The notes under the pieces were generated by a model. It was not told the DNA's origin, ran no database searches, and saw only the letters and a list, made by a program, of their open reading frames with translations. Positions 6,977 through 31,696 of a stretch of 64,000 nt of DNA are shown here, piece after piece. Both the position numbers and the translations under genes were made by a program. Position 1 is the first letter of the stretch. Every line of letters begins with the position of its first letter. This stretch comes from a phage. The DNA is taken from NCBI GenBank assembly GCA_025823825.1, contig GCA_025823825.1_4720.1; one strand, written 5' to 3'.

Positions 6977-7604
6977 TGATACCTTCTATTAGTTGTACAG
7001 CAACTTCTTTTTCGGTGCTATAAAAGAACTTGCGGTGGAACTGAACAAGAAGCTTTTCGAATTTACATTGAACGATCTTTTTGCGTTCGATATGACCCAG
7101 GGAGAGCAAAGCACCCATGCAACGTACCGCTTGTTCGAGAACTTGTTTCGCGGTATCGTGATCGTCCGGTAACGGTAAATCTTCCTCATCGTCTTTAGCG
7201 ATAAGGCGTCTGATGATGTTATCGATACGTATCTCATCACCGTTAATAAAAGCCCCCTTCTCCCAGTCATCGAATCGTTGATGGATTCGACGTTGTAAGT
7301 TGGCTCTGTCTTCCATTAACTCTTTCAACTGGCTTTCTAAGTGGGATACGGTACGGCGGTCGGTTTCAGTGAAGTTTTCCGATTCTTTGTACCACCAATC
7401 ATTACGCGATAGTAAATCGTTAACGCGCGAAATCGTCCGACGACACTCACTAACAAGCCCATCACCATTCGGTAGCTCCGTGCCGAAATAGCATTTGTAT
7501 TTATAACGCATAACACGGATTAAACGTTTCGCTAGAAAACCTTGCCTTTCCAGTTTCTTCTTCAGTTGTGTGTATTTCTCTTCTTTTGTTTCCATTAATT
7601 CCAT
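6963..7604 (-). CDS. hypothetical protein
   Basis: 213 aa ORF. Confidence 0.45.
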   Translation of the reverse strand: MELMETKEEKYTQLKKKLERQGFLAKRLIRVMRYKYKCYFGTELPNGDGLVSECRRTISRVNDLLSRNDWWYKESENFTETDRRTVSHLESQLKELMEDRANLQRRIHQRFDDWEKGAFINGDEIRIDNIIRRLIAKDDEEDLPLPDDHDTAKQVLEQAVRCMGALLSLGHIERKKIVQCKFEKLLVQFHRKFFYSTEKEVAVQLIEGINEVK

Positions 7605-7993
7605 GATGTTGTACCTCGTTCAGCAATCAGGAGAGTCGTGGTTGTGCTTTTCACTAATCTATTAAAGTCTTGATATATCCGCCTGAGGGATGGTTTCAAA
7701 TCACAATAACGGCTGAAATAAACCTTCAAGTCATCTTTTGTCACAGTCTCCGTATTTATTTTCGTAGAAACACCGAGATCGATAAACTCTTTTCTTAATT
7801 GGGATAATTCATCAAGAAGTCGATGGTGGCTTAGATAAATAACAGATTTATCGGATAACAACTCGCCGGTTATCCGGCTCTGGCGTTCATCGAAATATTG
7901 GAGCCGCCATTCAATTCGCTTACGTAATTTATCAAGTAAATCAACAAAAGCGGTATAGCTGTTAACGGCTAGGTTAACTTGACTCGTTATCAT
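7595..7993 (-). CDS. hypothetical protein
   Basis: 132 aa ORF. Confidence 0.4.
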   Translation of the reverse strand: MITSQVNLAVNSYTAFVDLLDKLRKRIEWRLQYFDERQSRITGELLSDKSVIYLSHHRLLDELSQLRKEFIDLGVSTKINTETVTKDDLKVYFSRYCDLKPSLRRIYQDFNRLVKSTTTTLLIAERGTTSWN

Positions 7994-9185: not shown

Positions 9186-9265
9186 TGCTTCTAACAGTTC
9201 AGAACTTACTTCATCCACGATAGTCCTCCGTATTAGGGTGGGCGTACCCACCCTCAGTTGTTACT

Positions 9266-10285
9266 TTACACCGCCACCTTGGCCTTGATAGCGGGGTGTG
9301 ATTGATATCCGACGAACACAAAGTCTTCGTAACGGTAATCCGTAATACTTTCTGGTTTACGTACGATTGTTAGCTTCGGTAATGGATACGGCTCACGACT
9401 AAGTTGTTCTTTAACCTGTTCGAAATGGTTGTGATAGATATGACAATCTCCACCTGTCCACACGAACTCACCAACGTCCATATTCAACTGCTGGGCAAGC
9501 ATGTGTGTTAACAACGAATATGAGGCGATGTTGAATGGTGTTCCAAGCAGTACGTCCTGCGATCTTGCTAGCAGCATACACGACAAGGCACGTGTTGGTA
9601 CGTTATGCGCATTCAACCAAAGTTCCGTTTCACTGTGTCGTACATCATCCGTAACCCACTGGGTTCTTAATACGTCGTTGCGTTGAACATAATCAACACG
9701 TTCATCGATCGTGAGCTCGTGGGTATAGAACTGATAGAAACTGTGGCATGCGGGAAGCGCCATATCGTCTAAATCACCTACGTTCCATGCGCTAACGATG
9801 ATTCGTCGAGAATCAGGATCTTCTTTAAGCTGGCGCATCACGTTTGCAATCTGATCGTGATGTTTAACATACACGAGGTGTTTTAGCGTACCGTCATTAA
9901 GAATGCCGCAATACTCGTAACCACGCTGCATCAACTCACGAGTACGCTCTGTATCGTGCGGAACAACCACTTTGTAGTCTATCCATTCCCGCCACTGTCT
10001 ACCGTAAATCGGTCCTAGATTCCCTTCTTCGTCAGCCCACTCATTCCAGATACGAACACCGTTATCTTGAAGATACGCAACATTTGTGTCGCCGTTAAGA
10101 AACCAGAGCAGTTCGTGGATAACGCTCTTAAGGTGAATCTTCTTGGTGGTTACCAGAGGGAATCCTTTCTTCAGGTCAAAACGCATTTGACGTCCAAATA
10201 CGGAACGGGTACCGGTACCTGTACGATCGGCTTTATCGCGACCGTTATCCATGATGTCTTGCAAAAGGTCCAAATACTGTTTCAT
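9266..10285 (-). CDS. thyA: thymidylate synthase family enzyme (ThyA-like; dUMP-specific, possibly a hydroxymethylase)
   Basis: 339 aa; [19 protein letters not shown] (catalytic Cys), [15 protein letters not shown] (Asn, uracil-type), GGDCHIY; longer than typical ThyA. Confidence 0.8.
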
Positions 10286-10485
10286 TTTAATCCTCTAAGT
10301 GTTTCAAGTAGTTCCTGAAATTTGTAACGATATTTAGGATCGCTTAACGTGCAGCAGCAACCATGTAACACGTTATACGCGTAATCGGCTTGTAAACCAC
10401 GAACCTTAGGATCCAATGATAGATTCAATGACGCGCCATCAAAAATCCACGCTTCAATGTTCTTCTTGGATTCCTTCGTTAACAT
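10282..10485 (-). CDS. hypothetical protein
   Basis: 67 aa ORF overlapping thyA start. Confidence 0.35.
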
Positions 10486-10558
10486 CGTTTCTCACCTCGT
10501 CGTAAAAGTAAATAGAGTTTTGTCGAGACGCCCTAATTACATACAACGTCGGTTATCC

Positions 10559-11440
10559 TCAGTAACAGTTATAATGGGTTCCAAGCCGCTCCGGTTTTCT
10601 CAGAAGACTATCTTTAAGCGGTACGACGTCGATATCAACGTTTTCTGAATAATAACCATTAGAACTACCATACCAACGAATAACAACACATCCTTTTGCT
10701 GTACGAATATGGTAAAATGTCCATCGCGTACGTTTGCAAAAGTCGTCATCCTCGTCTCTTTCCTCGGTTCTTTCTTCAGCGCTAAGTATCTTCTCACCAA
10801 TAATGTCGTTAAGATCGCCATCGATGTCTTCAAGGTACACTTTTTCACAGCAATCTTGCTTATGGCAGAATTCAACAACGTTCCCATCGCCCCGATAGAA
10901 AAGAAGGGCAATGCTGTATTGTAGCTGTTCGGCCGTTAAGTCTGTCGCGCAATACAAACTTTGATCTTCGGTTATCACCAAGACATTGTTGATTACGTGT
11001 CCGGCAAGCGCTCCGATCTTATTTACCGTGATAATCGGACGAACGGGTTCAGGTTGAACGATCGGAATACGAACACAACCAATTAAGGCCATCCGTCCTT
11101 TCTTTGGTCTAACCGCAAGGTAAGGTGATTTTCTTGGGTGGTTATGCAGACGTATTTCTAATTCGTCAAATTTAATCCCGTATATACCTAAGAAACGATC
11201 GAACAACCGATGAAACTCATCTGTTGCTTCTTTCAACGTTATGGTGTCTACCGTGAGTTTATGTCCCCTGAACACCCGGGTTATATCGATAACGTCGAGT
11301 GTTTTAAAATGTATTTCCGTAAGGGGGTGATTTGTATTTTCCAGGTATGTAATGGTTCTTTGAACCGCGATTTTAGGTGACGCACCTTTAAAACGTTTCA
11401 GGTATTTAACACGATAGCGTGTATGATCTGATGTTAACAT
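10559..11440 (-). CDS. hypothetical protein
   Basis: ORF-track N-terminus reads through the upstream hairpin; start set at ATG 11440 (MLTSDHTRY) preceded by GGAGAGGAG. Confidence 0.5.
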   Translation of the reverse strand: MLTSDHTRYRVKYLKRFKGASPKIAVQRTITYLENTNHPLTEIHFKTLDVIDITRVFRGHKLTVDTITLKEATDEFHRLFDRFLGIYGIKFDELEIRLHNHPRKSPYLAVRPKKGRMALIGCVRIPIVQPEPVRPIITVNKIGALAGHVINNVLVITEDQSLYCATDLTAEQLQYSIALLFYRGDGNVVEFCHKQDCCEKVYLEDIDGDLNDIIGEKILSAEERTEERDEDDDFCKRTRWTFYHIRTAKGCVVIRWYGSSNGYYSENVDIDVVPLKDSLLRKPERLGTHYNCY

Positions 11441-11507
11441 TTTAATCTCCTCTCCCGACTTCAGAGAATTCTTAAAATCCGTTAGTTTTGATAGATGAGG
11501 TAAGACG

Positions 11508-11534
11508 GCATAAAAGCCTCCCGTAATGGGAGGC
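11508..11534 (-). terminator. hairpin GCCTCCC-GTAA-GGGAGGC followed on minus strand by TTTTATGCCG
   Basis: Inverted repeat seen directly; sits just downstream of the 11548 stop. Confidence 0.55.
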
Positions 11535-11547
11535 TTCATTAATCAGC

Positions 11548-12096
11548 TTATTTCACAAGAACAGCGAATTCGAGAACATGAATAGCTTCATCGTCCATCG
11601 GATTTGTCGTGGTATAACCAACGAAGCAATAGCCCATATCCGCGATAAACTCGCTAAGTTTATCGATGACTGATGCCCCGATACGATCGTTAACAGACAG
11701 GCGACATTTACGGGTTATGTTTTGCCCGCGAGGAACGCCAGCTAACACGGATAGGAAATGTACGATCCGGTTATTGGTTGCGAACTGCTTGAAATCATCG
11801 TAGTGCTTAAGGTCTTTCATCGCAGACTCTACCGTCATACGACGACCAGGCGACACATACTCAGAATAAGAATAAGCTGCAATCGTGCGGCGGTCTTCAG
11901 TGAGGTAAGTATTCCCTTCGGGATGATAACTCTCGACTGTTCCGTCTTCATAGGTGACGGTCACAACAGGTGCACCGTACTCGTCGCGACCGAAATCAAT
12001 TTTACATTTATCCGAAAGCGGTAGAACCGTGCAAGGTTTTGCGTTGTTCTCATCAGGGAGATCGTAACCACTCATCATTTTCAAGAACATAGACAT
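11548..12096 (-). CDS. hypothetical protein, tandem paralog family member A
   Basis: 182 aa; N-terminal ~80 aa similar to 12183-12716, C-terminal ~90 aa similar to 12793-13092. Confidence 0.55.
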   Translation of the reverse strand: MSMFLKMMSGYDLPDENNAKPCTVLPLSDKCKIDFGRDEYGAPVVTVTYEDGTVESYHPEGNTYLTEDRRTIAAYSYSEYVSPGRRMTVESAMKDLKHYDDFKQFATNNRIVHFLSVLAGVPRGQNITRKCRLSVNDRIGASVIDKLSEFIADMGYCFVGYTTTNPMDDEAIHVLEFAVLVK

Positions 12097-12182
12097 AATA
12101 GAACCTCATGATAATAGATAATAGAAATGATAGATAGTACAACAAATTGAGGGGGTATTATCCCACCCCCTCGCAGGGATTA

Positions 12183-12716
12183 CTACTTAACGACCACGAT
12201 GATTTTGCCACCCGCACCGGCGTAATATGCCGTTAATTCACCAGTAAACAACTCTTGTAAAAGACGATTTACGTTACTAACAAAGTTAGGATTGTCTGAT
12301 TTTACAAACTCGATATTGCGCGTTTGTTTTATATCACGATCGATTAAGCGTATTTCCAACAACGCACAAATAAGGCGATCGTCAAGTTTACCACTTGCAT
12401 CCAGCACTTCTCCATACTTCGTAGCACGGACGTCTGCATACATACGGTCAACATCATCCTTCCCAAAACCACAGGAATAGGCGTACGTTGCGATGGTATT
12501 ACCATTGTCCATCACATAAACGTTACCGCCTGGGTAATCGATGAATCGTTGATCCTTATCACCATGAGCGACGAACTCCAGTGTCGGTCTACCTAGTGAA
12601 TCGCGATTGAATTCGATTGTGGTCAAACGGTCAGGCACCACATGCAATGTAAACGGTTTCGCATTGTTACGATCGCTAGTATCGCAGTTAGCCATTACTT
12701 TTACAATAACACTCAT
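12183..12716 (-). CDS. hypothetical protein, tandem paralog family member B
   Basis: 177 aa; shares MS..K.M...D.NNAKP...IA.YAYS N-terminal block with member A. Confidence 0.55.
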   Translation of the reverse strand: MSVIVKVMANCDTSDRNNAKPFTLHVVPDRLTTIEFNRDSLGRPTLEFVAHGDKDQRFIDYPGGNVYVMDNGNTIATYAYSCGFGKDDVDRMYADVRATKYGEVLDASGKLDDRLICALLEIRLIDRDIKQTRNIEFVKSDNPNFVSNVNRLLQELFTGELTAYYAGAGGKIIVVVK

Positions 12717-12792
12717 GTTTATTCCTTAGTAGTCCTAGTAGTAGTAGTATTGAGGAATTTCACCTCATTAGATAATCAACTTTGGTAATGTT

Positions 12793-13092
12793 TTACTGAA
12801 ACAAGACATTAAATTCGACGAGATACCCATCGGATCTATCACCACGATATCTGTTGCAGAAAACACCGAATTTCATCAAGAACTCACATAACTCTTCGGC
12901 TTTGTATAGCGGAATACGATTTTCGTCGAGCAGGGGGCACTTATGGCTAACCCGCTCCGACGAATCAACGCAACACAAATAAAGAAGGAATCGAACAATA
13001 GCTCGGTTCTTAGTGAAGCTCTCGAATTCACCTGCAGTTCTGAACTCATCGAGGAGCTTTGTCGTTTTCTTCAATCGTTCACGATCGAGCAT
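12793..13092 (-). CDS. hypothetical protein, tandem paralog family member C (C-domain only)
   Basis: NRAIVRFLLYL...HKCPLLDENRI aligns to NNRIVHFLSVL...RKCRLSVNDRI of member A; start set at internal Met (MLDRERL). Confidence 0.45.
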   Translation of the reverse strand: MLDRERLKKTTKLLDEFRTAGEFESFTKNRAIVRFLLYLCCVDSSERVSHKCPLLDENRIPLYKAEELCEFLMKFGVFCNRYRGDRSDGYLVEFNVLFQ

Positions 13093-13155
13093 GTTAACCC
13101 CAATACGAGCATAACCCTCCTCCAACCCATCAGGGAAGGAGGAGGGAATATGCTG

Positions 13156-13470
13156 TTATTCTGTTTTCGGTGTTGAACCGTTCTTCTTGAAGTCGGATTC
13201 GTATTTCACGTTAGAATCGAGAACCTCACGAACGGTTTTATCCGTACAACCACGAGCGATGTATGCATTAAGATCATCACGTAATTTACGCATCGTTGTT
13301 TTATCCGCATCAGAAACATCTGACTTGGTAAGACGGAATGCGATTGCATCGCGAATTTTATTCAACGTTGCTGGGTTATTACGCTGTTCTGCAAATACCG
13401 CTTTGATGAATGTACCGCTATCTTTCGAAGCGACAGCTGCATCAAGAATCTCAATATGCTTTTCAGACAT
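13156..13470 (-). CDS. hypothetical protein
   Basis: 104 aa ORF. Confidence 0.4.
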   Translation of the reverse strand: MSEKHIEILDAAVASKDSGTFIKAVFAEQRNNPATLNKIRDAIAFRLTKSDVSDADKTTMRKLRDDLNAYIARGCTDKTVREVLDSNVKYESDFKKNGSTPKTE

Positions 13471-13521
13471 CTTCTTTCCTTTAATAAACGATCATCGTCA
13501 TATTCATTGCGCAGGATGCTA

Positions 13522-14751
13522 TCACTTCAGAAGCTTAGACACCGCCATGCTTCGCGCCATCGCAACGTCATACGCATCCATGATCGCGTCACCGATAGCG
13601 GTATGACGGATCAACGGAATACCCATGTCTGGATACTCTTTGGTGCCTAAGATGGATACCGGTTTGTCTTGATACGCGGCAATCATCGAACGAATATCCT
13701 GAATCTGGTTATAACGGCAGATTGGTTTGAAGCCTGCCTTACGGAACCAATGTTCTAATTGAGGCCAATCTGTTTCACCACGAGCAAGATAATAGAAGGT
13801 ATCCTTACCGTAGTATTCGGTCATCTCATCACGGATATTGTTAACAAATGCATTTACTGTAGCAATGGCTTCTTTATAGTCCATCACTCCGTCATGCTGA
13901 AAACAATAGTCACGCGCTTCCTTCGGTGCTTTGGTTTGCCACCATTCTACCGTGGACTTACTAATATCACCGCCATCAGCGATTTGACCATAAACGTCGG
14001 GGAAGATATCAATACGTGGGCCGTTAATAACAGATTCTGGATTGACTAGATCGAAGAACAAGATACCGATTTCCAGCAGTACCCCGTTCTTTTCCAGACT
14101 GAGATTCTCCACATCCAGGCAAAACGCAGGTTTCTCTACCGTTGAAAAATCAAAATATTCTTCGAGACGCGGCGTTGGTTCAGCAGCGAGAAACGTCTCA
14201 TGAATGAACTGGGCGAATGTCTTATTCATTGCTACTAAGTCAATACCCAATTTACTTAGCAGAGGTATAATTGCGGGGTCATTCTGCTGTATTACCACAC
14301 ACTCTTGGTTTTTGATACAACGACCAAGTGAGTAAAAAAGATGAACGATGTCTAACGGTTTGTACGGGGCCTCAAATGTTGTTCCCTGGAACGACTGAGC
14401 TAGCACTTTATGTGTTTCTTCACGATGATCTATCAGTTGGAAAATAGCACAGCGCAGATAATGCCGTAATGTTATCTCGTGAAGGTGTGATGTATCTTCC
14501 TGAAATAACGTCATGAAACCGTGATACGTATAATACGCACCTCTTCGAATTTCTTCGAGGAGTTCTTTGTCCCCATTTGTTTCCTCCGATGTTATCGGTT
14601 CCATTTGATCGAGGATAGTGCTGAGAAGGTCACTGCCGTGTACCTTAAACAGTTTTTCAACGTCAAGATTAGGTAATGTCGCGATTGCTGCGTACATTAA
14701 TGTTTCTGCGGGATTAAGTTCTTTATTGTCAATTGTGATGGTTAAAGCCAT
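13522..14751 (-). CDS. DEDDh-type 3'-5' exonuclease domain protein with N-terminal domain of unknown function
   Basis: FCLDVENLS (D-x-E) and HTAIGDAIMDAY (H-x-A-x-x-D-A) in C-terminal half; start at ATG 14751 with GAGG upstream. Confidence 0.6.
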   Translation of the reverse strand: MALTITIDNKELNPAETLMYAAIATLPNLDVEKLFKVHGSDLLSTILDQMEPITSEETNGDKELLEEIRRGAYYTYHGFMTLFQEDTSHLHEITLRHYLRCAIFQLIDHREETHKVLAQSFQGTTFEAPYKPLDIVHLFYSLGRCIKNQECVVIQQNDPAIIPLLSKLGIDLVAMNKTFAQFIHETFLAAEPTPRLEEYFDFSTVEKPAFCLDVENLSLEKNGVLLEIGILFFDLVNPESVINGPRIDIFPDVYGQIADGGDISKSTVEWWQTKAPKEARDYCFQHDGVMDYKEAIATVNAFVNNIRDEMTEYYGKDTFYYLARGETDWPQLEHWFRKAGFKPICRYNQIQDIRSMIAAYQDKPVSILGTKEYPDMGIPLIRHTAIGDAIMDAYDVAMARSMAVSKLLK

Positions 14752-14776
14752 TTTATTATACCTCATCGAAATCAAA

Positions 14777-15118
14777 TTAGTTCAGTTCTGGTTTATCAGC
14801 AACCAGACCAAGTCCAGTCAATATCACGTAGTCGTACCAAGCTTTTACTTTTGCTTTCGCTTCACCTAAACTATCTGCGTTGATGTGCGAAAACTCATCG
14901 TTGACTGGGAAAGGTAAATCGCAGTCATAGCTGGTATAATCCTTCCAACCTTTCCATTCGATAGTTAGAGAACCAAAAACGGTCTCAGCGACAACATGGT
15001 TATAGCGACAGTTTTCACATGGCGCGCGCTCTTCCGACCAAACAAGCTCGTGTTGCGCTAAAAGTTGTTGTACGACCGATAACGGCTGCTCTTCATTAAG
15101 TTCGATACTGTCTATCAT
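14777..15118 (-). CDS. hypothetical protein
   Basis: 113 aa ORF. Confidence 0.4.
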   Translation of the reverse strand: MIDSIELNEEQPLSVVQQLLAQHELVWSEERAPCENCRYNHVVAETVFGSLTIEWKGWKDYTSYDCDLPFPVNDEFSHINADSLGEAKAKVKAWYDYVILTGLGLVADKPELN

Positions 15119-15711
15119 CGAATACTCTCCTTTTCCTTATCGTAATCGCTGCAAATATTGACAAACGCCGTATTATCAGACAGCCTGCTGACCATCTGAC
15201 GGATTGCGTCCAACGGTTCAAGTTTAGGATTGATTGATTCACCGGTCAACGCGCTTATTGCTCGTGTGATCTCAACCAAATCAACGTTCGGGTCGTTGTC
15301 ATCAATAATGAGCAGACTCTTCGCCGGTTTCTGACGACGTTTGATAATTAACAAATACGTGATGAGGTTCTCACGCCAAGCATCAGAATCCAGATTGCGT
15401 ATCAGGGTTAACGCACGACGCTCTTCCGCCCATGATGGTTTCTCACGGATAACAGGCATGTAAGATAATTGCTCAGCAAGCCCTTTCAAGCTGACACGGT
15501 TGGTGCCGCCAGGATGCTCGCTAATCCGCAACATCTCGGTTAACAGACGGACATAGGCGGCTGTTGTAGAAACACCCCTCAGCGGCAGGAACACATTATG
15601 TCCTGGAACCCCATCGTGACTCAGCGGTGCGATATACGCCATGAATTGCCGAATATCATCGTCGCTCTGTTCTCCAGCAACGAACTTAAACGCTTCACGT
15701 AAAACGCTCAC
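15115..15711 (-). CDS. hypothetical protein
   Basis: 198 aa ORF. Confidence 0.45.
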   Translation of the reverse strand: MSVLREAFKFVAGEQSDDDIRQFMAYIAPLSHDGVPGHNVFLPLRGVSTTAAYVRLLTEMLRISEHPGGTNRVSLKGLAEQLSYMPVIREKPSWAEERRALTLIRNLDSDAWRENLITYLLIIKRRQKPAKSLLIIDDNDPNVDLVEITRAISALTGESINPKLEPLDAIRQMVSRLSDNTAFVNICSDYDKEKESIR

Positions 15712-15997
15712 TATGACGTCTCCTTAATGTTTCTTGCATACGTAGTCTCTCCGGCAGGTACAGACGTTTGTATAGATCAATTAACAGATAACGCATAACG
15801 GAAGCAACCACCAGGTATTCACCTTCAGCTTCCGAATAACGTATCATGTTAATTGGGTAGTTCAAATAAGAATAAGAAAAGAGATCATCGTTGGTAAGGT
15901 GATGATCTTCAAGATACTGACGAAACAATTTTGCTAAGGCATCGTACTCCATTCCGTAGTAACACAACGACACCTGTCTTGCAGATAGTCGTTTCAT
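15695..15997 (-). CDS. hypothetical protein
   Basis: 100 aa ORF. Confidence 0.35.
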   Translation of the reverse strand: MKRLSARQVSLCYYGMEYDALAKLFRQYLEDHHLTNDDLFSYSYLNYPINMIRYSEAEGEYLVVASVMRYLLIDLYKRLYLPERLRMQETLRRRHSERFT

Positions 15998-16836
15998 GCT
16001 GGGTTACCTTTTAGTTTTCCACGTATCATGTCGACAACGCGTGAGGGATCAGAAATAACATTGGCGATAAGATGATCGATAGGTAGGTCGAGAATGATAT
16101 TCTTCAGCTGGAAAGCCGTATCTTTACGACGCACGCCGTAGAACACGCCATCTTTAAACACAACCTCGTACGAAATGGGGAGCTGGCTAATAACCGTGTT
16201 AGCGTAATCACCCAACCACATCGACCCCGCCATCAGATGCGCACAAACCGCATGACTAATACGCACATCTTTGTTCTTCCGGCTAACGTCTTTGGTTTTC
16301 GACATGGTAACCAGAAGCTCACCGATCTTACTCAGCATATCGTCGTATACCCCAAAGAACTTAATCAGTTGTCGGGCACCTAACGATATATATGTTTCTC
16401 GTGGTAAGACACAACACACCTGCGGTAACGTTCCAACCCCATAGACACAACTGTGTGGTGATAATGGAAGCAAATCAGCAACCGCGTTCTTGATGTTGTT
16501 ATACTCAACGATATCGTTGAACGGTGAAAGACCTTTCGTAATCGGTTTATCAATCGCCACATCGAACTCCGCGAACGTCCATGCTGCTTTACGTGGTTCC
16601 CCTTTCTGGTACGGTGGAGCCAGTACCGCGACAACACGAAGTCGATGTTCATGGGTATCACGTAGCTTAAGTTGGATACCCTCACCATCACCCTCACGCA
16701 CAAGTGAGTAGCGGCTTGCGCAGTCATCACATACCACCGTTGGTTCGTGTTGACCGTATGCTGCAAGCATCGGTTTACTAAGATCTTTATCACAGTGTTT
16801 ACAGCGATGATCCTGTTCCTGATAACTGATTTTCAC
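15994..16836 (-). CDS. hypothetical protein with N-terminal Cys4 zinc-ribbon
   Basis: 280 aa; CKHCDK...CDDC near N-terminus. Confidence 0.5.
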   Translation of the reverse strand: MKISYQEQDHRCKHCDKDLSKPMLAAYGQHEPTVVCDDCASRYSLVREGDGEGIQLKLRDTHEHRLRVVAVLAPPYQKGEPRKAAWTFAEFDVAIDKPITKGLSPFNDIVEYNNIKNAVADLLPLSPHSCVYGVGTLPQVCCVLPRETYISLGARQLIKFFGVYDDMLSKIGELLVTMSKTKDVSRKNKDVRISHAVCAHLMAGSMWLGDYANTVISQLPISYEVVFKDGVFYGVRRKDTAFQLKNIILDLPIDHLIANVISDPSRVVDMIRGKLKGNPA

Positions 16837-17808: not shown

Positions 17809-18071
17809 TATTGAATTCCTTTTGATAAGAATAACTGAATATCGGTAAACTGTTCTTCAGGAACATCGTCAGCGGCCGTTAGAACCTTAGGACCGTGTTC
17901 ATTGAGGTAAGCTTCCCGTAGACAATGATGACGTCGATTGGCTTCCTGGAACTCAGTGTCCGTCATGTAAACCAGCGTAAACTTCGAACGTTTATTCGGA
18001 TTATATCTCTTATTACGTTTCTTTGGTTTCTTCGCCATAATAGCCTCGTGAAGGTGGATGGATACACCCAT
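17808..18071 (-). CDS. hypothetical protein
   Basis: 87 aa ORF. Confidence 0.35.
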   Translation of the reverse strand: MGVSIHLHEAIMAKKPKKRNKRYNPNKRSKFTLVYMTDTEFQEANRRHHCLREAYLNEHGPKVLTAADDVPEEQFTDIQLFLSKGIQ

Positions 18072-18086
18072 CCACCTTCCTCCATG

Positions 18087-19450: not shown

Positions 19451-19482
19451 CTTTATCTCCTTAACGGGTGCTGGTAACGCAG

Positions 19483-19506
19483 CATAAACCCTCCCCGAAG
19501 GGAGGG
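19483..19506 (-). terminator. hairpin CCCTCC-CCGAAG-GGAGGG followed on minus strand by TTTATGCTG
   Basis: Inverted repeat seen directly, downstream of the 19517 stop. Confidence 0.55.
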
Positions 19507-19516
19507 CGGTTAACGT

Positions 19517-20074
19517 TCACTCCATCCATACTTCTTCGTCGTAATGATTTTCTATCGCATTACGCCAAAAACGTACGGTGTCCAAACTAATCGGTGCATA
19601 AAAATGCTGATCAACGCCTACATTAAGTCCGTTGGCTTTCGCTAACATACAGCGATGAATATGACCGAATAAATTAAAGTAGCCTGGGTTTCTTTCGCTG
19701 GGCTTATGGCATAGCCAGTAGGATTCGTCATTGCTAATCGGCAACACCAACGGATGTTCATAAACCGCAGCAAACCCCATACCGAGCAATTTATCACGCC
19801 ACGCTTCAAAGCTTAATCCTGTCGCTTTGTATGCGTCCTCGTCCCAATTCCCCAATACCAATTGAACCTGGATATCAGAACGAATGGCTTCCACGAACTC
19901 GAACTTACCCCAATCACCTAAATGCCACAACACACTGTTCTTTGGAAGCTTGTTGATGGCTTTCAGCATATGCTGGTTCATATCGGCGACGCTTGCGAAC
20001 GGACGGCGTGAATACGTCCACGTACGCTCGCTATCAAAATGGGTATCCGACATAAAGAAGATGGGTGGGGTCAT
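19517..20074 (-). CDS. calcineurin-like metallophosphoesterase (Ser/Thr phosphatase-like)
   Basis: 185 aa; FMSDTHF, GDWG, GNWD, GHIH motifs in canonical order. Confidence 0.8.
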   Translation of the reverse strand: MTPPIFFMSDTHFDSERTWTYSRRPFASVADMNQHMLKAINKLPKNSVLWHLGDWGKFEFVEAIRSDIQVQLVLGNWDEDAYKATGLSFEAWRDKLLGMGFAAVYEHPLVLPISNDESYWLCHKPSERNPGYFNLFGHIHRCMLAKANGLNVGVDQHFYAPISLDTVRFWRNAIENHYDEEVWME

Positions 20075-21303: not shown

Positions 21304-21327
21304 CACGTAAGTAATATAGCCGTGAAA
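21304..21327 (-). promoter_or_regulatory. conserved promoter-like motif, copy 1 (minus strand TTTCACGGCTATATTACTTACGTG)
   Basis: One of 4 near-identical copies, all 50-70 nt upstream of minus-strand gene starts; core TATATTAC. Confidence 0.5.
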
Positions 21328-21399: not shown

Positions 21400-21440
21400 C
21401 CCCGGCCTCCTCCCCAGGAAAGGTGTGGGGAGGAGTTTTT
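21400..21440 (+). promoter_or_regulatory. hairpin CCTCCTCCCC...GGGGAGGAG plus TTTTTAT at the start of the plus-strand unit
   Basis: Same hairpin family as the terminators but here no plus-strand gene lies upstream. Confidence 0.4.
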
Positions 21441-21470
21441 ATCATACATTCTATTAAATCGAGCGCGATT

Positions 21471-23552
21471 ATGTTGGATAGAATCAATCGTCTAATGAAC
21501 CGAATAACGGTTAAAAATCAGAGTAACAATACCGTGCATATCGGGGGTATCGATGCCTGGCGTCTTTCAGATGACATTCAGCGAATATGGGGTACCTCCC
21601 GATTTATGAAACATATGTTTCGTAATTTCTCTTCTAGTGGACTCAGCCTCCACAACTTTTACCTCCCCGATTTCGTTTATATTCTCGAGACGATCATCGA
21701 AGCAAAGAATACCCGCAGTAACAAACGCATGCTGAAACACCTTATTGAGGTACTGCTACAGGAAACCTGGTTGCAAAATACCACAATCGAGCAACCTGCA
21801 ATCCTCGATAAAGCACGCATGAACAAAATGCTAACGCTCTCTTTGTTCGATTATCAAGATGAGTTTATCGACATCTATAACCGTAACGTACCTAAATACC
21901 GACTGAAAGGATACGTGTGTGCGATGGGTGCTGGTGCGGGTAAAACAATCACCGCACTGGCATTAAGCTCCGCAATGAACGTCGATGTATTTGTGGTCTG
22001 CTGTCCTAAGAACACCATGCGTTCAGCATGGCAATCCGATGTAAACAAAGCCATCGTTGACCCTGCAACAGAAACCGCGTTCTGGTCAGATACGATGCCA
22101 CCATCACAGCTGCAGAAAAGCGATAAGTACTATTTTCTGCATTATGAATCGATGGGTTTATTAAACGATGTAATGATCAAGCATAAACGCACAGCGAAGC
22201 GCGTGTTGATCGTGGTTGATGAAAGCCATAACTTCAACGACAAGAACAGTCAACGTTCCCAACGACTGGTTGATCTCGTACAGACGATGCGTCAGACCAT
22301 GAATGCGGATGTGCACGTCTTGTTTATGTCAGGTACACCTGTTAAACAAATGGGTTCTGAGATGATCCCATGTTTAGGTTGTATCGACCCGATGTTCCAA
22401 GGACAGGTGGTCGATAGCTTCAAAGCGATTTACGGTTTAACCAGCAGTCGCGCTAACGATATCCTCAGACATCGTCTTGGGTTCATGATGCATGTCGTAC
22501 CTAAAGAGGCTTACCGTAAAACCCGTCCGGAAGTTCAGGATGTTTACGTGAAGCTCCCTAACGGTAGCGATTATACCATCTCAAGTATCCGCGACGACAT
22601 GGCGATATTTGTACGCGATCGGGCGAAGTATTACAAGGATAACTGGGGACACTACAGAAAGATTTTTGATGACGCCTTGGACTACTATCGTAAGACTATT
22701 CGTACCGACGGAGAACGTAAAGAGCTATCTCGATACGAATCGATTGTTGCTCGTTTCCAGAAAGGTTACGACCCCGTCAGAGACAAAGAAGATGCGATGT
22801 TCTGCAACGCGTTTGAAAAACGTTCCATCATGCCGGTTCTTCCTTCTGATTTAAGGATTGCTTTCAAAGACGCTAAGAGTGTCATCAAGTACGTTGGGTT
22901 GAAAATTCAGGGTGAGGCGTTGGCCCGTGTTCTCGGTGCAGCCCGCATTCGGTGTCATGTCGATATGGTGGAGTACATCGACTTCGAAGGGTATATCAAC
23001 AACGCTGAAGCCAAGGTGTTGATCTTCACGTCGTACGTTCAGGTGGTTGAGCGTGTCGACAACATGCTTCGTGATGCGGGTTTCTTACCGGAACCCATTT
23101 ACGGGAAGACCAACAAAAACATCAACCAAATACTTGCTCGTTTACGCGACGATCCCGACAGCGGCCCCGCTATCGCAACATTTGATAGCTTAGCTGAAGG
23201 GGTTCCGATGTTGATGTGTAACGTGGGTCTCTTCTTGAACAACCCATGGCGTTCATCCGATGAAATCCAAGCCATCAGCCGTCTCGATCGTGTAGGGCAA
23301 ACGCAACCGGTTCGGATTTATCGTTTCATGTTAGATACGGGAAGCGAGGGTAACGTTTCTACACGTAGCCACGAAATCATGGAGTTAAGTCGGCAGCTTG
23401 TTGAAGAAATCACGGGTGTCAAATACGTGGTGAACAAGCAAGACGATGTTAACTTGCAAGAAACGTTGGCGATGGAAGGATACGATCAATACGTTACCGT
23501 AAACACCACGGAATACGATATTAAACCACGACCTGCGTTCTTGGAATGGTGA
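21471..23552 (+). CDS. SNF2/Rad54-family helicase-like ATPase
   Basis: LFDYQ, GAGAGKT (Walker A), VVDESHN (DExH), MSGTP, QAISRLDRVGQ; start at first ATG rather than GTG 21423 inside hairpin. Confidence 0.75.
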   Translation: MLDRINRLMNRITVKNQSNNTVHIGGIDAWRLSDDIQRIWGTSRFMKHMFRNFSSSGLSLHNFYLPDFVYILETIIEAKNTRSNKRMLKHLIEVLLQETWLQNTTIEQPAILDKARMNKMLTLSLFDYQDEFIDIYNRNVPKYRLKGYVCAMGAGAGKTITALALSSAMNVDVFVVCCPKNTMRSAWQSDVNKAIVDPATETAFWSDTMPPSQLQKSDKYYFLHYESMGLLNDVMIKHKRTAKRVLIVVDESHNFNDKNSQRSQRLVDLVQTMRQTMNADVHVLFMSGTPVKQMGSEMIPCLGCIDPMFQGQVVDSFKAIYGLTSSRANDILRHRLGFMMHVVPKEAYRKTRPEVQDVYVKLPNGSDYTISSIRDDMAIFVRDRAKYYKDNWGHYRKIFDDALDYYRKTIRTDGERKELSRYESIVARFQKGYDPVRDKEDAMFCNAFEKRSIMPVLPSDLRIAFKDAKSVIKYVGLKIQGEALARVLGAARIRCHVDMVEYIDFEGYINNAEAKVLIFTSYVQVVERVDNMLRDAGFLPEPIYGKTNKNINQILARLRDDPDSGPAIATFDSLAEGVPMLMCNVGLFLNNPWRSSDEIQAISRLDRVGQTQPVRIYRFMLDTGSEGNVSTRSHEIMELSRQLVEEITGVKYVVNKQDDVNLQETLAMEGYDQYVTVNTTEYDIKPRPAFLEW

Positions 23553-23559
23553 TTAAGAA

Positions 23560-23589
23560 GCCCTGCCGTCAAGCAGGGCTTTATGCTGC
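23560..23589 (+). terminator. hairpin GCCCTGC-CGTCAA-GCAGGGC followed by TTTATGCTGCG
   Basis: Inverted repeat seen directly, just after the SNF2 stop. Confidence 0.5.
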
Positions 23590-25102: not shown

Positions 25103-25117
25103 AAAAAAAAAAAAAAA
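25101..25117. repeat. A17 homopolymer tract overlapping the stop codon of the DUF285 gene
   Basis: Seventeen consecutive A counted on plus strand. Confidence 0.9.
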
Positions 25118-25128
25118 TAGTTAGCATA

Positions 25129-25167
25129 TCTTCCTCCCTACCCATAACGGGCGGGGAGGAAGGTTTT
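25129..25167 (+). terminator. hairpin CTTCCTCCC...GGGAGGAAGG followed by TTTTATGGCG
   Basis: Inverted repeat and T-run seen directly between convergent genes. Confidence 0.55.
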
Positions 25168-25180
25168 ATGGCGTTATAGC

Positions 25181-26409: not shown

Positions 26410-26477
26410 ACATGCTCCGGTTATAAGGGCCTGCTTCGAGGCCCTTCATTGATTTTTGATTCCACCAAACGCTATCG

Positions 26478-28052
26478 TTACAATTCAAAATCTTCATCGA
26501 TAACACGCTGGGTAAGCACTTTGTCGCTGAAGAACTCCACCTTGCGCTGATGGTATTTACGGTGCGCTTCGATAGAAGTACATACCAGATACCAGAACGT
26601 TGGCGTCATTCCTTCAAACTTTCCTTTCAGCTGACGCAGTCGTCCCAACACCTGAATGTTACCGGTTCGTGACCCCATCGCTAATGTCATGAACGTCATC
26701 ACCAAGTCAGGAAGGTCGATACCTGTACCTGCCGATTTCACCGTTGTAACGCTAATATCGTTATCCAGCAAGACCATGAAGTCTTCTTCAGCAGTATAAG
26801 GACCGATTTCTAACTCAGGGATACGTTCACTGAGATAATGCGACAACGACTTACACATATCGACGGTTGCACAATACACCAGCATCTTCATACCTTCCTG
26901 ATACTGGTTCATGAAACCCTTGATAATAACGGTATAGATGAAGTTAAAATACGCGAGTTTGAGTTGCTTGTTCTTCATGATAGACTGTTCGAATATCGTG
27001 TGCGAATAAGCTCCACCAAACCCTTTGTATCTGACTTTATCTGTACTGCGTAGTCGGTACGTTACCGCATTTACCGCAATGTATTTCTTGTATTCGCCTT
27101 TCGCATAACGGGCTTCTTTCGGATACATCAAATACAGCATCTGTTCGATAAACGGATCATCGGATACCGCTGTTGCCGACAGATAAATGATTTCCGGAAT
27201 ATTGGCGTAACACTTGACCTTAAACAAGAAATGCAATGCTTCGTGACACTCGTCATGAATCAGCAAACCTATGCCGGTCTTTTCCCAAAACTCAGCGGGA
27301 TGAAAGGCATATGGCGCAACGCAGTTATTCTTCTCGTAGTCCGCAATATAACGTTGGAACATGTTCAAGGAGAACAATGCGATTTTGAAGTCGAGTTCAC
27401 CTTGTTCAACCAAGGTTTGAAACTCCAACATACTGTAACGAGGAATGTCGGGATGCGGTGGATCCTCCTTAGCGTTCCCGCGTATCTCGATAACGTCCCC
27501 TGGTTCCATCCCGAAGAAGTTCAGCAGTGAGCTTCGCCAACCTGGCATGTATCTCGGCGACAGAATGATACCCGTCCGTACACCGCGTCGGAAGGTGATC
27601 TCCTGCGACATGGCCGTTTTTCCTGACCCCGTTTGAGCGGTGTTTAGGCTCATTCTGAAGGGGGTATCCTTACCCCCGTCCATGTACTCCAACCATTCTT
27701 GCTGATCTTGACGCCATGGAAACTTCCATTTCTTTACGAACTCCACTTCTTTACCTGGTACCGGATCGTGATAGACGATTTCCAACCACTCTTTTCGTAT
27801 CCCTCGGGAAAAGATAAAATCCAAAAACGATTTCAACTGTTCACGGAGTAAGTATACCTCGCTATAATCGCTTCTTGCCGCGGCATACGTGTTTATGGTA
27901 TCGGTAACCATTCTCCGTGTACGAGGGTCACGCCGTTTCCTCAGATGCAAACAACGGTCTCGAAGGTAATGGCCGATAAGATGGGCAAATCGAAGTCCGT
28001 ATCCGCTCAGCCTCATGCCGTGCGAGAAGACGTCGATACGAGCTAACTTCAT
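26478..28052 (-). CDS. superfamily 2 DExH-box helicase
   Basis: 524 aa; AQTGSGKT, HDECHEA, SAT, QVLGRLRQ motifs. Confidence 0.75.
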   Translation of the reverse strand: MKLARIDVFSHGMRLSGYGLRFAHLIGHYLRDRCLHLRKRRDPRTRRMVTDTINTYAAARSDYSEVYLLREQLKSFLDFIFSRGIRKEWLEIVYHDPVPGKEVEFVKKWKFPWRQDQQEWLEYMDGGKDTPFRMSLNTAQTGSGKTAMSQEITFRRGVRTGIILSPRYMPGWRSSLLNFFGMEPGDVIEIRGNAKEDPPHPDIPRYSMLEFQTLVEQGELDFKIALFSLNMFQRYIADYEKNNCVAPYAFHPAEFWEKTGIGLLIHDECHEALHFLFKVKCYANIPEIIYLSATAVSDDPFIEQMLYLMYPKEARYAKGEYKKYIAVNAVTYRLRSTDKVRYKGFGGAYSHTIFEQSIMKNKQLKLAYFNFIYTVIIKGFMNQYQEGMKMLVYCATVDMCKSLSHYLSERIPELEIGPYTAEEDFMVLLDNDISVTTVKSAGTGIDLPDLVMTFMTLAMGSRTGNIQVLGRLRQLKGKFEGMTPTFWYLVCTSIEAHRKYHQRKVEFFSDKVLTQRVIDEDFEL

Positions 28053-30055
28053 AACGTGATTACATCCTCCGGTTTAGGTTCTTTACGCGGTAACAGCATG
28101 TAGTCGATCGGATGATCCGGCTTCATGGTTGGGATATAACTGTTCGGGTTTTGGAACGCATCCAGCTGCTCTTGGTGAGCGAACTTCATACTCAAGGAGC
28201 GCATGTTCATGTTCTTCTTGAAGGTACTGAAGTATCGTGTTGTTCCCTGTTTCGGCATGCGATAATCTTTCGTGTGCGGTGAACGAATCATGCTGGCGTA
28301 GAGAATAACATCGAGATGCGAAAGGTTCATTCGCAGACGCTGGGCACACAGACGATGCCAATAGTACAGCACGTTTGCAACTTCTTCCGGTGTTGCTTCG
28401 TCTTCCGAAAGGAATCCGGCACTGAAAGAACCTTTCCCGAATTTGAATTCACGTTCGATTTCTTTTGCGTATTCCATCATGTTTTTGTGGATTAACGGCA
28501 TCTGGAATAACGTACGTGAATTGTCCCAATGTTTCAAGTCGAAAATCACAATCCCGTCAGACGTCACTTCCCAGCTATGGCGTTTAAGATAACGGATAAA
28601 CGCTTTACTCGGTACAACAGGACGTCCACAGAAATCGAAATTGACTTTGAGCTTACGATAGCTTTCATCTTTCCTGTCGTAAATCTCCATATCGCAAAGC
28701 GTCATGTTAAACAAGCGTTGCGGTATCAGCGAACTGATTTCTTCCGCTTCGGCTACGTCGTACAACATGTTCGCAAGACCTAACTTCATCTTAATCAGCA
28801 CGTGTTTACCTTTCAGCTCACGTGCGAGTTTGATGTCGTTCATGTTCTGGCTATAGCGAAGGATATGTTGATATTCCGGTGGGATTGGTGCTGTGGATAC
28901 CGTTGACGAACCATCGTGGTGTTTGGTAGAAAGAATGTTCTGCGTCACCTGTTGCGAACAGGTACGCGCTGCGCCATCGCCGACATTATCAGTCAATGCG
29001 AAGTTATGACTTAATTCACCGTAACACGTTGTACATACCCCAGCAGGATCGGGATGATGACAATAGTTAACGGAGCGCATGCGTACCGTCGTGCCGATCA
29101 ATTCTTTCATGTGTGGTTGTATCGCTACCAACGAACCGTCATCACGAATAATGAATCGACCATGGAAGCCACGCAGGTCGGTCTCGTCGCGGATTGGCAT
29201 CGGGATGGTCTCTTTACTACCACAATCACCAGGATGGAGTCGTTGTACAACCGCTGTCGCTATCTGAAGTTCACGACCGAAATATTCAGACTTTTTAATC
29301 TGCTCTTTGTTGAACAGCAACGATTTTGCCGCAGAACGACTTTCTTTCAAGCTGTCGGGAAGAGAGATCAAACCGGCTGCGTATGACCGCATTACTGGAT
29401 CACGGAATATCTCGGAGTTAATATCGGTCAAGAATCCACGCATCCCAATACACTGCAGCACCTGTCCAATCGAAACGTGTTCGGTTCTTACCGCACGTGC
29501 GATAGGGTTTGCATGTAACGTTTTATCGGTGCTCAGTACCTTTGTCAGTTTCTTGTATGCGCTTTCGATACCTTCACGGGTGGGTTCCGCTTCGGCGATG
29601 ATTTTCTTAACTTCGGGATGTACGGTAATCTGATAAAAATCGTCCGCGCAAATCGTTGTTACGTATTCCTCCAACGCATACGTAAAGAAGTTATATACGT
29701 TGTTGAACATATCGAACAGTGCTTTCCAGAGAACCTCACGATTCTCTTGTGGGTAAGCATACATGCATTGACGATACGCTGCGCTTTGCAACGCAACCGA
29801 CGAACCAGCAGTAAACTTGCGTTTATCGACCAGGTTCTCTTTTGTCAATGGTGTCTCAGGATACATGCGATGCACAGACCAGTGCATGTAACTAAAGAAA
29901 ATGCGTCGCGCACGCAATTCATGAACGCCATCGTCCATCTCGATATATACACGGTCATTAGGCTGTGCCCACTCGAACACCTCATCAACCGGCCAATGCA
30001 TAAGCTCGCGTGCCCTCACACGACGTTTCGTGGTGGTCGTCTGTGTTATAGTCAT
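28049..30055 (-). CDS. RNA polymerase beta'-like subunit, C-terminal portion
   Basis: 668 aa; VLQCIGMRGFL...YAAGL...GDCGS resembles bacterial beta' region F/G (QLAGMRGLM...FREGL...DDCGT); compared from memory. Confidence 0.6.
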   Translation of the reverse strand: MTITQTTTTKRRVRARELMHWPVDEVFEWAQPNDRVYIEMDDGVHELRARRIFFSYMHWSVHRMYPETPLTKENLVDKRKFTAGSSVALQSAAYRQCMYAYPQENREVLWKALFDMFNNVYNFFTYALEEYVTTICADDFYQITVHPEVKKIIAEAEPTREGIESAYKKLTKVLSTDKTLHANPIARAVRTEHVSIGQVLQCIGMRGFLTDINSEIFRDPVMRSYAAGLISLPDSLKESRSAAKSLLFNKEQIKKSEYFGRELQIATAVVQRLHPGDCGSKETIPMPIRDETDLRGFHGRFIIRDDGSLVAIQPHMKELIGTTVRMRSVNYCHHPDPAGVCTTCYGELSHNFALTDNVGDGAARTCSQQVTQNILSTKHHDGSSTVSTAPIPPEYQHILRYSQNMNDIKLARELKGKHVLIKMKLGLANMLYDVAEAEEISSLIPQRLFNMTLCDMEIYDRKDESYRKLKVNFDFCGRPVVPSKAFIRYLKRHSWEVTSDGIVIFDLKHWDNSRTLFQMPLIHKNMMEYAKEIEREFKFGKGSFSAGFLSEDEATPEEVANVLYYWHRLCAQRLRMNLSHLDVILYASMIRSPHTKDYRMPKQGTTRYFSTFKKNMNMRSLSMKFAHQEQLDAFQNPNSYIPTMKPDHPIDYMLLPRKEPKPEDVITL

Positions 30056-30686: not shown

Positions 30687-30843
30687 AATCTCATTTCCTC
30701 TTATACGTTAGGATAGATGACATGTTGGATATACGTTGCCTTTGCATATATTGCTTTATTTCCGTCAGAAATAACGGAAAATAAAAACAACGACATAGTT
30801 CCCTCCCACCTCCACATGGGAGAGGGAGGGCTATTCGTGTTTA

Positions 30844-31578: not shown

Positions 31579-31647
31579 ACCAGGGATCCTCTTTAAGTCT
31601 TCACATTCTAGTGTTAAGCAGTTAAAATAAACCGTTCCTTTAATCAG

Positions 31648-31687: not shown

Positions 31688-31696
31688 TAATATGCA

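Follow-up and report, generated by a model that had tools for sequence, protein, structure and literature searches.

Hairpins between the genes of a Goslar-like phage

We analyzed a stretch of phage DNA of 64,000 nucleotides (contig GCA_025823825.1_4720.1; hereafter, the window), in which compact GC-rich hairpins, many of them followed by a tail of the type TTTATGCYG, recur in the gaps between genes. An earlier note on this DNA had suggested that these hairpins might be terminators coupled to a second class of promoter. The copy flagged there lies at 11506-11537 on the minus strand, which is the coding strand at this site, and consists of the hairpin GAAGCCTCCC-ATTAC-GGGAGGCTT followed by the exact tail TTATGCCG. 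Nearly all genes in the window are encoded on the minus strand.

Positions 10000-16000 were 94% identical to Escherichia phage vB_EcoM_Goslar (hereafter, Goslar), and the alignment of the whole window to Goslar 123.6-186.2 kb, interrupted by a few insertions and deletions, showed 92-98% identity. The window belongs to a close relative of Goslar, a nucleus-forming jumbo phage (chimallivirus) with its own RNA polymerases. The Goslar annotation includes fragments of phiKZ-like multisubunit RNA polymerases, and the window carries counterparts of the beta and beta' fragments, as expected of a genome with the virion and non-virion multisubunit polymerases of chimalliviruses. The open reading frame (ORF) at 28052-30055 was 100% identical to the Goslar beta'-like fragment, and its product shared 24-32% identity with subunits of phiKZ, PhiPA3, Erwinia phage RAY, Klebsiella phage Eowyn, and Ralstonia phage RP12. 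Six of the hairpins in the window, including one ahead of the helicase gene, are labelled 'putative transcriptional terminator' in the Goslar record.

An energy-based scan identified about 25 compact GC-rich hairpins within or at the edges of intergenic gaps, and strong hairpins were present at all 16 positions where the earlier note had placed them. Hairpins in the window were taken from such energy-based scans throughout, and a perfect-stem finder was kept for cross-phage comparison only, because it was too strict for the window and missed stems with G.U pairs or bulges. Polypyrimidine/polypurine arms were found in about 17 of the 25 hairpins, with stems of the form CCYCCC/GGGRGG and loops of 3-8 nt; the loops TTCG and ATTAC/GTAAT also occur in phiKZ. 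Several members depart from the C-rich 5' arm and G-rich 3' arm described previously: the arms are mixed or G-first at 12149-12172, 48778-48801, 54368-54395, and 58411-58434. The remark that this polarity appears on whichever strand is coding is uninformative, since the reverse complement of a C-first/G-second hairpin keeps the same polarity.

The exact motif TTTATGCYG occurred 8 times in the window against 1.13 expected, a count reached in none of 100 shuffles, and for the shorter TATGCYG there were 33 copies where 13.5 were expected. Ten of these 33 copies had a hairpin of at least -12 kcal/mol in strength ending 0-6 nt upstream, compared with 2.7% of random positions (binomial P=1e-8). Near variants of the tail were TTATGCTCG and AATATGCTG (13106-13155), TTTTATGGCG and ATATGCTAA (25121-25174), ACTATGTCG (at 30791), and GTTATGTTA and TGATTATGCAC (52064-52141). 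When these are included, a TATG-type tail stands 0-6 nt after the stem at 13 loci. The claim that most hairpins are tailed thus holds for the 16 listed previously (9 with TATGC and 2-3 with near variants), but across the window it applies to about half of the intergenic hairpins. Where the tail is absent, the hairpin is followed by TTATAC, TATTTGCCG, TTTTTATCATAC, a T-run, or no recognizable sequence.

A plain U-tract is missing from these elements, as had been remarked, and this fits a generic terminator scan (at least 5 T in 8) that showed no enrichment in the window, with 22, 14, and 25 sites found against 17.6, 19.4, and 17.7 expected. The canonical arrangement of at least five U in eight directly after the hairpin was not characteristic of the window, where typical tails read UUUAUGCC. 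A sigma-70 promoter scan of the window likewise showed no enrichment; such sites were depleted, as expected because the phage does not use the host polymerase. Rfam covariance models gave no match at gathering thresholds over the whole window, and a tRNA scan of the window found nothing.

Placement, strand bias, and conservation

Wherever the distance was read, the hairpin started 4-25 nt after a stop codon, except for that at 54368-54395, which the nearest called gene precedes by about 195 nt. The tail was on the coding strand in all nine tailed copies flanked by genes of the same direction. Three or four copies are located between convergent genes, and those at 13106-13155, 25121-25174, and 52064-52141 carry tails on both strands, so that the family combines sense-strand copies behind stop codons with two-way copies in convergent gaps.

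At 19 of the 21 sites with same-direction flanking genes, the sense RNA was predicted to fold more stably than the antisense RNA (binomial P=1e-4). This advantage stems from G.U pairs, which argues for a function at the RNA level and in the direction of transcription. All 25 hairpins were kept in Goslar. Between the window and Goslar, loops had diverged most (9.5% substitutions), followed by flanks (about 3%) and stems (1.6%). Among 289 base pairs compared, 281 were unchanged and one had changed on both sides (C-G to T-A, at 23557), while five showed one-sided changes that were still paired (e.g., U.G to C-G at 43983) and two weak pairs were broken.

Similarity to mapped terminators of phiKZ and 201phi2-1

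RNA ends have been mapped in phiKZ, where 61 intrinsic terminators are reported to have in common 5'-BCCYCCCCHWWDGGGRRGGBYTTATKYYGT-3', a motif in which TTAT comes directly after a stem-loop (Putzeys et al. 2024, PMC10914365). The sites tabulated there (supplementary table, bioRxiv version of PMC10914365) include GCCTCCCTAGGGGAGGCTTTTATGCTG and CCCCTCTCCATGCGGAGAGGGGTTTATGCCG, for which 3' ends were mapped, and GCCCTCCCTTCGGGGAGGGCTTTATGTTGT; these phiKZ sites are practically the elements of the window. A similar terminator motif (motif A, n=59) has been reported for 201phi2-1, in which eight terminators stopped expression in a reporter trap (PMC11512511).

We built a covariance model (R1) from eight mapped phiKZ terminators of the same geometry; the restriction to eight was made because MAFFT alignments of 37 and 17 phiKZ terminators gave inconsistent stem registers. 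R1 matched the window at 19476-19517 (E=2.4e-7), 11505-11547 (4.7e-5), 34665-34718 (5.4e-5), 30790-30843 (2.5e-3), and 23548-23589 (5e-3), with weaker matches at 13104, 58400, 45438, and 25121. A sequence-only nhmmer profile of 41 phiKZ terminators, based on a hand-built alignment, had as its top eight matches only elements of the earlier note, two of them with E below 0.01. Copies in the window were thus recognized by profiles trained solely on experimentally mapped phiKZ terminators. The strand of a profile match is unreliable, because the phiKZ motif is nearly palindromic (an upstream ACRRCATAA mirrors the downstream TTATGYYGT); the orientation of each element was therefore read from its tail and flanking genes and not from the covariance-model strand.

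When the published phiKZ 3'-end coordinates were placed on the genome, they fell -2 to +3 nt from the last T of TAT, and the commonest 3' end was ...UUAUGYY|G, 7-10 nt after the stem. The stated resolution of the 3'-end mapping method is about 2 nt (PMC11512511).

The elements of the window share with the terminators of phiKZ and 201phi2-1 the CCYCCC/GGGRGG stem, the short loop (often TTCG or GTAAT), and (T)TTATG-Y-Y-G directly after the stem, as well as a position after stop codons, two-way copies in convergent gaps, and a phage with the same two-polymerase transcription system. They differ from those of phiKZ in host and clade, the phage here being a Goslar-like phage of E. coli with a polymerase subunit about 30% identical to that of phiKZ. 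Furthermore, the window shows less variation in its tail (GCYG, against KYYG in phiKZ), and most of its copies lack the upstream mirror flank ACRRCATAA, which is common in phiKZ. The word 'terminator' also appears in a 2026 preprint on the Goslar virion structure and in one on phiKZ transposon mutagenesis that mentions Goslar, where it has other senses (a tail terminator protein and a cloning cassette, respectively), and these were set aside.

The tail in other chimalliviruses

We compared hairpin tails among phages by counting TATG starting within 6 nt of a perfect GC-rich hairpin, with the five relatives other than phiKZ sampled as about 41 kb around the polymerase genes. TATG was present in 45 of 126 tails in phiKZ (background 3.2%, P=1e-34), 11 of 26 in Klebsiella phage Eowyn (background 2.0%, P=2e-12), 7 of 20 in Erwinia phage RAY (background 2.1%, P=1e-7), and 11 of 44 in Ralstonia phage RP12 (background 1.4%, P=2e-11). 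The counts were not significant for Vibrio phage XC32 (2 of 18, background 2.2%) and SPN3US (1 of 28, background 1.6%). TATG was mostly continued by C-C-G-T in Eowyn, RAY, and RP12, and by Y-Y-G-T in phiKZ. Tails in Eowyn, RAY, and RP12 read TTATGCCG, those of Vibrio XC32 were TTATTTATT-like, and SPN3US hairpins ended in plain T-runs.

An orthologous site follows a small conserved gene that is antisense to the polymerase block. It reads CCCTCCC..GGGAGGG-CA-TTTATGCCG in the window, ..GCCTCTCCC-TTTATGCCG in Eowyn, and ..GCCTCTCC-TTATGCCG in RAY, with unrelated stems and the same tail. In addition, the arm order seen in phiKZ and Goslar is reversed in many stems of Eowyn and RAY, which begin with the G-rich arm. 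These results indicate that the tail is conserved and the stem sequence is not. A literature search of limited reach found no paper describing this family-wide tail pattern.

Probable transcription termination by phage polymerases

The terminator half of the earlier reading is supported by where the elements stand relative to stop codons, by their sense-strand bias and conservation, and by their likeness to terminators mapped experimentally in phiKZ. The elements very likely serve a Goslar-like chimallivirus as intrinsic transcription terminators of the phiKZ type, read by its multisubunit RNA polymerases. As a class, such terminators are known from phiKZ and 201phi2-1, and the set in the window is the Goslar-lineage version of it and no new kind of element. 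What deserves attention beyond this is the conservation across chimallivirus genera of a tail that overlaps with TATG, the core of promoters used by the non-virion RNA polymerase (nvRNAP). The tail TTATGCCG is kept despite the low identity of the polymerase subunits (about 25-32%), diverse hosts, and freely varying stems, which points to a signal specified by the phage polymerases.

In the mechanism that we propose, the phage polymerase would transcribe a GC-rich inverted repeat, typically CCCTCCC-loop-GGGAGGG, shortly past a stop codon, and the nascent RNA would fold into a hairpin of -15 to -30 kcal/mol. The RNA would be released 7-10 nt beyond the stem, inside (T)TTATGCYG; the tail is taken to span the release point because the 3' ends in phiKZ fall there. 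The tail would give a short, weak U/A hybrid (UUUAU) and then a GC-rich step, and ATGCYG may act as a sequence-specific pause or halt for the phage polymerase, standing in for the long bacterial U-tract. Copies in convergent gaps with a tail on both strands would stop transcription from both directions. A canonical bacterial Rho-independent terminator similarly combines a GC-rich hairpin with a U-rich stretch and release 7-10 nt after the stem; unlike it, the element of the window has a U-tract of 3-4 U that is interrupted by A and followed by a conserved GCYG, and its tail sequence is kept across phage genera whatever the host.

The pause consensus G-10/Y-1/G+1 was reportedly described by Larson and by Vvedenskaya, both in 2014. 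The terminator sequence resembles it, and the likeness is one of pattern only: at ...GGGAGGGYUUUAUGYY|G, a pyrimidine occupies -1, a G occupies +1, and a further G lies at about -10/-11, in a register taken from 3'-end maps of about 2-nt resolution. A consensus elemental pause of multisubunit RNA polymerases exists and is multipartite (PMC6336406).

We also considered whether the TATG(Y)YG tail is read during elongation by the same nvRNAP pocket (in the beta-like subunit, gp123 in phiKZ) that reads the TATG promoter core. Naked, TATG would signal a start; with a nascent hairpin 3-6 nt upstream, it would signal a halt and release. One pocket for start and stop is suggested by a tail that is conserved across genera, is absent in SPN3US, and contains the promoter core, and we regard it as rather unlikely overall. 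If true, it would account for three features of the tail: that a specific sequence takes the place of a U-tract, that this sequence persists behind unrelated stems in chimalliviruses of Pseudomonas, E. coli, Klebsiella, Erwinia, and Ralstonia, and that the SPN3US lineage lacks it.

Several points weigh against termination as the function of these hairpins. The TATG tail is missing from about 12 hairpins, about half of the intergenic set, and is thus not obligatory; many phiKZ terminators likewise have no TATG tail. The tail was not enriched after hairpins in SPN3US or Vibrio XC32 in the regions sampled around the polymerase genes. The phiKZ 3' ends come from long-read complementary DNA, in which termination and 3' trimming to a protective hairpin are indistinguishable. 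Transcript-end maps for Goslar or the present phage were not found in our literature search of limited reach, and the halting role of ATGCYG is itself a proposal.

As terminators, the elements would supply operon boundaries for annotating a Goslar-like phage. SPN3US-like phages, which have no such tail, offer a natural comparison, and portable terminators working inside the phage nucleus would aid the engineering of chimalliviruses.

Alternative explanations

The hairpins might instead be stabilizers or processing sites at RNA 3' ends: transcription would continue, host or phage nucleases would trim to or cut at the hairpin, the hairpin would protect the mRNA, and the tail would be a site of cleavage or binding. 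Selection on the structure of the sense-strand RNA is consistent with this idea, as are the phiKZ 3'-end maps, which do not separate termination from processing. RNA-level signals are also plausible in a phage whose mRNA is exported from a nucleus-like compartment (PMC11077065). The same paper, on ChmC mapping by enhanced crosslinking and immunoprecipitation, reported no hairpin or binding motif. However, eight 201phi2-1 terminators lowered downstream reporter expression in vivo (PMC11512511). Moreover, the tail is kept across Pseudomonas, Ralstonia, and enterobacterial phages and is absent in SPN3US, a Salmonella phage, a distribution that indicates a phage factor rather than a host nuclease. 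Processing in place of termination is thus quite unlikely, and the two roles are not mutually exclusive.

The second half of the earlier reading would make each element a module for stopping and restarting, in which the hairpin terminates the upstream transcript and the TATG of the tail serves as an nvRNAP core promoter, with its G as +1, to launch the downstream gene. The late promoter consensus of the phiKZ nvRNAP is indeed 5'-TATG-3', with G as the first transcribed base (PMC4666361; PMC12809450), and the tail contains this core. Where the distance was read among the nine same-direction copies, the next start codon lies about 15-65 nt downstream. Close tandems of a terminator and a promoter also occur in phiKZ (P049, P054, and P075, and early promoters after T088 and T110). 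The promoter core is the same TATG on the non-template strand, but it has no hairpin ahead of it and transcription begins at its G, whereas TATG in the window follows a hairpin; in phiKZ, RNA 3' ends map on the TATG of terminators and the mapped starts do not.

The distribution of the tail speaks against a restart. All 10 TATGCYG copies outside coding sequence in the window are coupled to a hairpin, and no intergenic TATGCYG is free-standing, as an nvRNAP late promoter independent of a hairpin would be. Eight of these were scored as intergenic; the two at 11512 and 31651 counted as genic only through a rough ORF map that places the starts of those genes too far upstream. The remaining 23 TATGCYG copies are within genes and show no preference for either strand (11 in sense and 12 in antisense). 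Tailed copies at 34677-34717, 25121-25174, and 52064-52141 have no downstream gene on the same strand to launch, and copies between convergent pairs also occur in phiKZ (T059/T060, T070/T071, T092/T093), Eowyn, RAY, and RP12. Furthermore, none of the 119 mapped phiKZ start sites examined (P008-P126) falls on a terminator's own TTATG. Where a phiKZ start has a hairpin within 50 nt upstream, it uses a second TATG 4-40 nt further on (P016, P049, P054, P075) or an early promoter (P017, P099). Tandems of a terminator and then a promoter are common in this family, but the phiKZ starts examined do not use the tail itself. Therefore, a second promoter class built on the tail is very unlikely.

The elements could also be palindromic DNA sites of the form CRGCATAA-hairpin-TTATGYYG, bound by a dimeric protein for replication, packaging, or nucleoid organization. 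Both flanks are often present in phiKZ copies and in the window at 13106-13155, 25121-25174, and 52064-52141. Most copies in the window, however, have a one-sided tail, always on the sense side. The greater stability of the sense RNA through G.U pairs at 19 of 21 sites would be meaningless for double-stranded DNA, and the stem sequence changes freely while pairing is kept. Such a role is highly improbable.

Finally, a translation signal, with the G-rich arm as a Shine-Dalgarno sequence and the ATG of the tail opening a short regulatory frame, is barely credible: GGGAGGG-TTT-ATG does resemble a Shine-Dalgarno sequence with a start codon, and Goslar annotates the start of gene 00183 at a tail ATG, but the Shine-Dalgarno-like arm is locked in a stem of -15 to -25 kcal/mol, phiKZ RNA ends inside or just after the ATG, and the Y position and the base after G differ between the window and Goslar, which alters the peptide. 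Frames opened by the tail ATG run for 9, 10, 11, 18, 18, 22, and 89 codons, and two more continue into the following gene. For 45447, a better pair is formed by a GAGGA and an in-frame ATG 13 codons downstream (about 45408), and at 31650 the Goslar annotation itself takes a later start. The short upstream frames beginning MPxx that had been proposed show no sign of coding; 'MP..' is simply the translation of ATGCCG, and the frames that open at the tail ATG look accidental. Longest-ORF starts coincide with a tail ATG at 45408-45447 and 31645-31656, and the annotated start of the Goslar_00183 counterpart (45447) is probably misplaced onto the ATG of a terminator by accident.

Individual elements

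On the minus strand, the hairpin GCCTGTGTCCCTCCC..GGGCGGGCACGGGC at 927-974 (-23 to -25 kcal/mol) is followed by GTTATGCCG and is kept in Goslar with the tail TATGCTG. The flagged copy at 11506-11537 was matched by R1 at E=4.7e-5 on the plus strand and 0.015 on the minus strand, and by nhmmer at E=0.0027. Its loop (11520-11530) is ATTAC here and GTAAT in Goslar (about 132990), the exact reverse complement within an unchanged stem, a difference that looks like a flipped hairpin tip. The element at 19480-19507 (minus strand), GCCCTCCC-TTCG-GGGAGGGT followed by TTATGCTG, gave the lowest E-values (R1, 2.4e-7; nhmmer, 7e-4) and is nearly identical to phiKZ T057, T067, and T119. Further minus-strand copies are CCCTCCCTCTCCC..GGAGGTGGGAGGG with AACTATGTCG at 30791-30834 (R1 E=2.5e-3), CCTCCTCCTGCCC..GGTGGGAGGAGG with ATGTTTATGCTG at 31645-31688 (sense fold -23.9 against -17.6 kcal/mol for antisense), and ACCCTCCCTGC..GCGGGGAGGGT with TTATGCCG at 45442-45476, in which a U.G pair makes the sense strand more stable. 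Two minus-strand copies with TTCG loops, AACCGATCTGGC-TTCG-GCTGGATCGGTT then CTTTTTTATGCCG at 54355-54395 and GAGCCTGTCC-TTCG-GGGCAGGCTT then TTATGCCG at 58403-58434, are annotated as terminators in Goslar.

The plus strand carries GAAGCCCTGC-CGTCAA-GCAGGGCTT followed by TATGCTG at 23557-23588, after the helicase gene, with the compensatory change from C-G to T-A relative to Goslar. It also carries CCCTCCC..GGGAGGG followed by CATTTATGCCG at 34677-34717, after the small plus-strand gene at 34307-34672 and facing a convergent gene. Tails are present on both strands at 13106-13155, where a palindromic two-way copy, CCCTCCTCC..GGAGGAGGG, has the tails TTATGCTCG (minus) and AATATGCTG (plus), with -25.9 and -23.4 kcal/mol. 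For the two-way copy between convergent genes at 25121-25174, the tails are GGTTTTATGGCG (plus) and ATATGCTAA (minus), with -25.5 and -23.5 kcal/mol. A run of 17 A at 25103-25120, kept in Goslar, lies between the stop codon of the plus-strand gene and this copy; read on the minus strand, it becomes T17 and lies about 12 nt beyond the tail of the hairpin. The long two-way hairpin at 52064-52141, also between convergent genes and identified by the energy scan, has the tails GTTATGTTA (plus) and TGATTATGCAC (minus).

Other members have tails of a different kind. At 12139-12172 (minus strand), a related hairpin with G-first arms has the tail AATTTGTTGT, without TATG, and is annotated as a terminator in Goslar. 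A 16-pair hairpin followed by CCATTCTTTTTTAT at 43969-44018 (minus strand) was predicted to fold at -30.4 kcal/mol in sense and -14.3 kcal/mol in antisense, and shows a change from U.G to C-G in Goslar. The energy scan also identified AAGGGCCT..AGGCCCTT followed by ATAACCGG at 26415-26446, GGGAGGGAGG-GCAA-CCTCCCTCCC followed by TTATACGTCC at 48768-48805, after the gene for a 631-aa protein (the Goslar_00189 counterpart), and GCCGTCTCGAG..CTCGAGACGGT followed by AAGTTTATACTG at 63875-63912, all on the minus strand, as well as CCTCCCTCG..CGAGGGAGG followed by TATTTGCCG on the plus strand at 60583-60616, between convergent genes.

The copy near 21400 had been offered as a possible promoter or leader, with nothing upstream to terminate. 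It does lie in a divergent gap ahead of the helicase gene (21407-21446, plus strand), where CTCCTCCCC..GGGGAGGAG stands about 37 nt before the start codon and is identical, and annotated as a terminator, in Goslar. The TATGC tail is missing, however, and the sequence reads TTTTTATCATAC. The hairpin at 21407-21435 is better read as a 5' leader hairpin or an insulator than as a promoter. The sequence TTTTATGG is found about 40 nt upstream on the same strand, and if this is a start site, the hairpin would be a leader element; it could also block antisense read-in. In 201phi2-1, terminators just downstream of promoters have been described, and antitermination was suggested (PMC11512511).

Neighbouring motifs and differences from Goslar

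Strong conserved hairpins without a T-rich tail were found on the minus strand at 9235-9254, 18048-18080, and 39350-39393. The first two lie just upstream of start codons (e.g., ..CCACCTTC-ACGAGGCTATTATG), and the third lies in a long gap upstream of a gene with an annotated start near 39248. These hairpins look like leader or processing structures rather than terminators.

Four exact copies of TATATTAC were identified, all on the minus strand (21311-21318, 39306-39313, 44585-44592, and 50796-50803) and embedded in a longer shared motif, approximately TTTCACGGCTATATTACYTAGGTGA. All four lie in gaps upstream of minus-strand genes, the one at 39306 only when the gene start annotated in Goslar is used. 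One of the downstream genes encodes the 631-aa counterpart of Goslar_00189, which, judging by synteny, is probably the nuclear-shell protein. In the phiKZ start-site table, TATATTAC forms the core of early promoters, and the four sites are probably early promoters of the virion polymerase. When one mismatch was allowed, the 8-mer showed no overall enrichment in the window. On the minus strand at 54300-54355, TTTTTTAACAGATATACGAG directly follows the terminator-like element at 54355-54395 and resembles the phiKZ early-promoter variants TTTAAACAGTATATTAC; the two may form a tandem of terminator and promoter.

Four stretches of the window have no Goslar counterpart (1864-2713, 7594-7989, 10559-11450, and 47127-47494). 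The one at 1864-2713 holds the gene for a D12-class N6-adenine DNA methyltransferase (Pfam E=2e-60), and the stretch at 10559-11450 encodes a DUF7448 protein, with its insertion point just after the hairpin at 11506-11537. A Pfam search of 7594-7989 and 47127-47494 gave no match. Conversely, a Goslar gene for a NUMOD1/HNH endonuclease (about 1065 nt) is absent from the window (46739-47126 compared with Goslar 168217-169667). The adjacent stretch, annotated as a group I intron in Goslar, had no Rfam match at the gathering threshold and is present in the window at 98% identity, where it is followed by a window-specific insert of 368 nt that adjoins the polymerase beta' gene.

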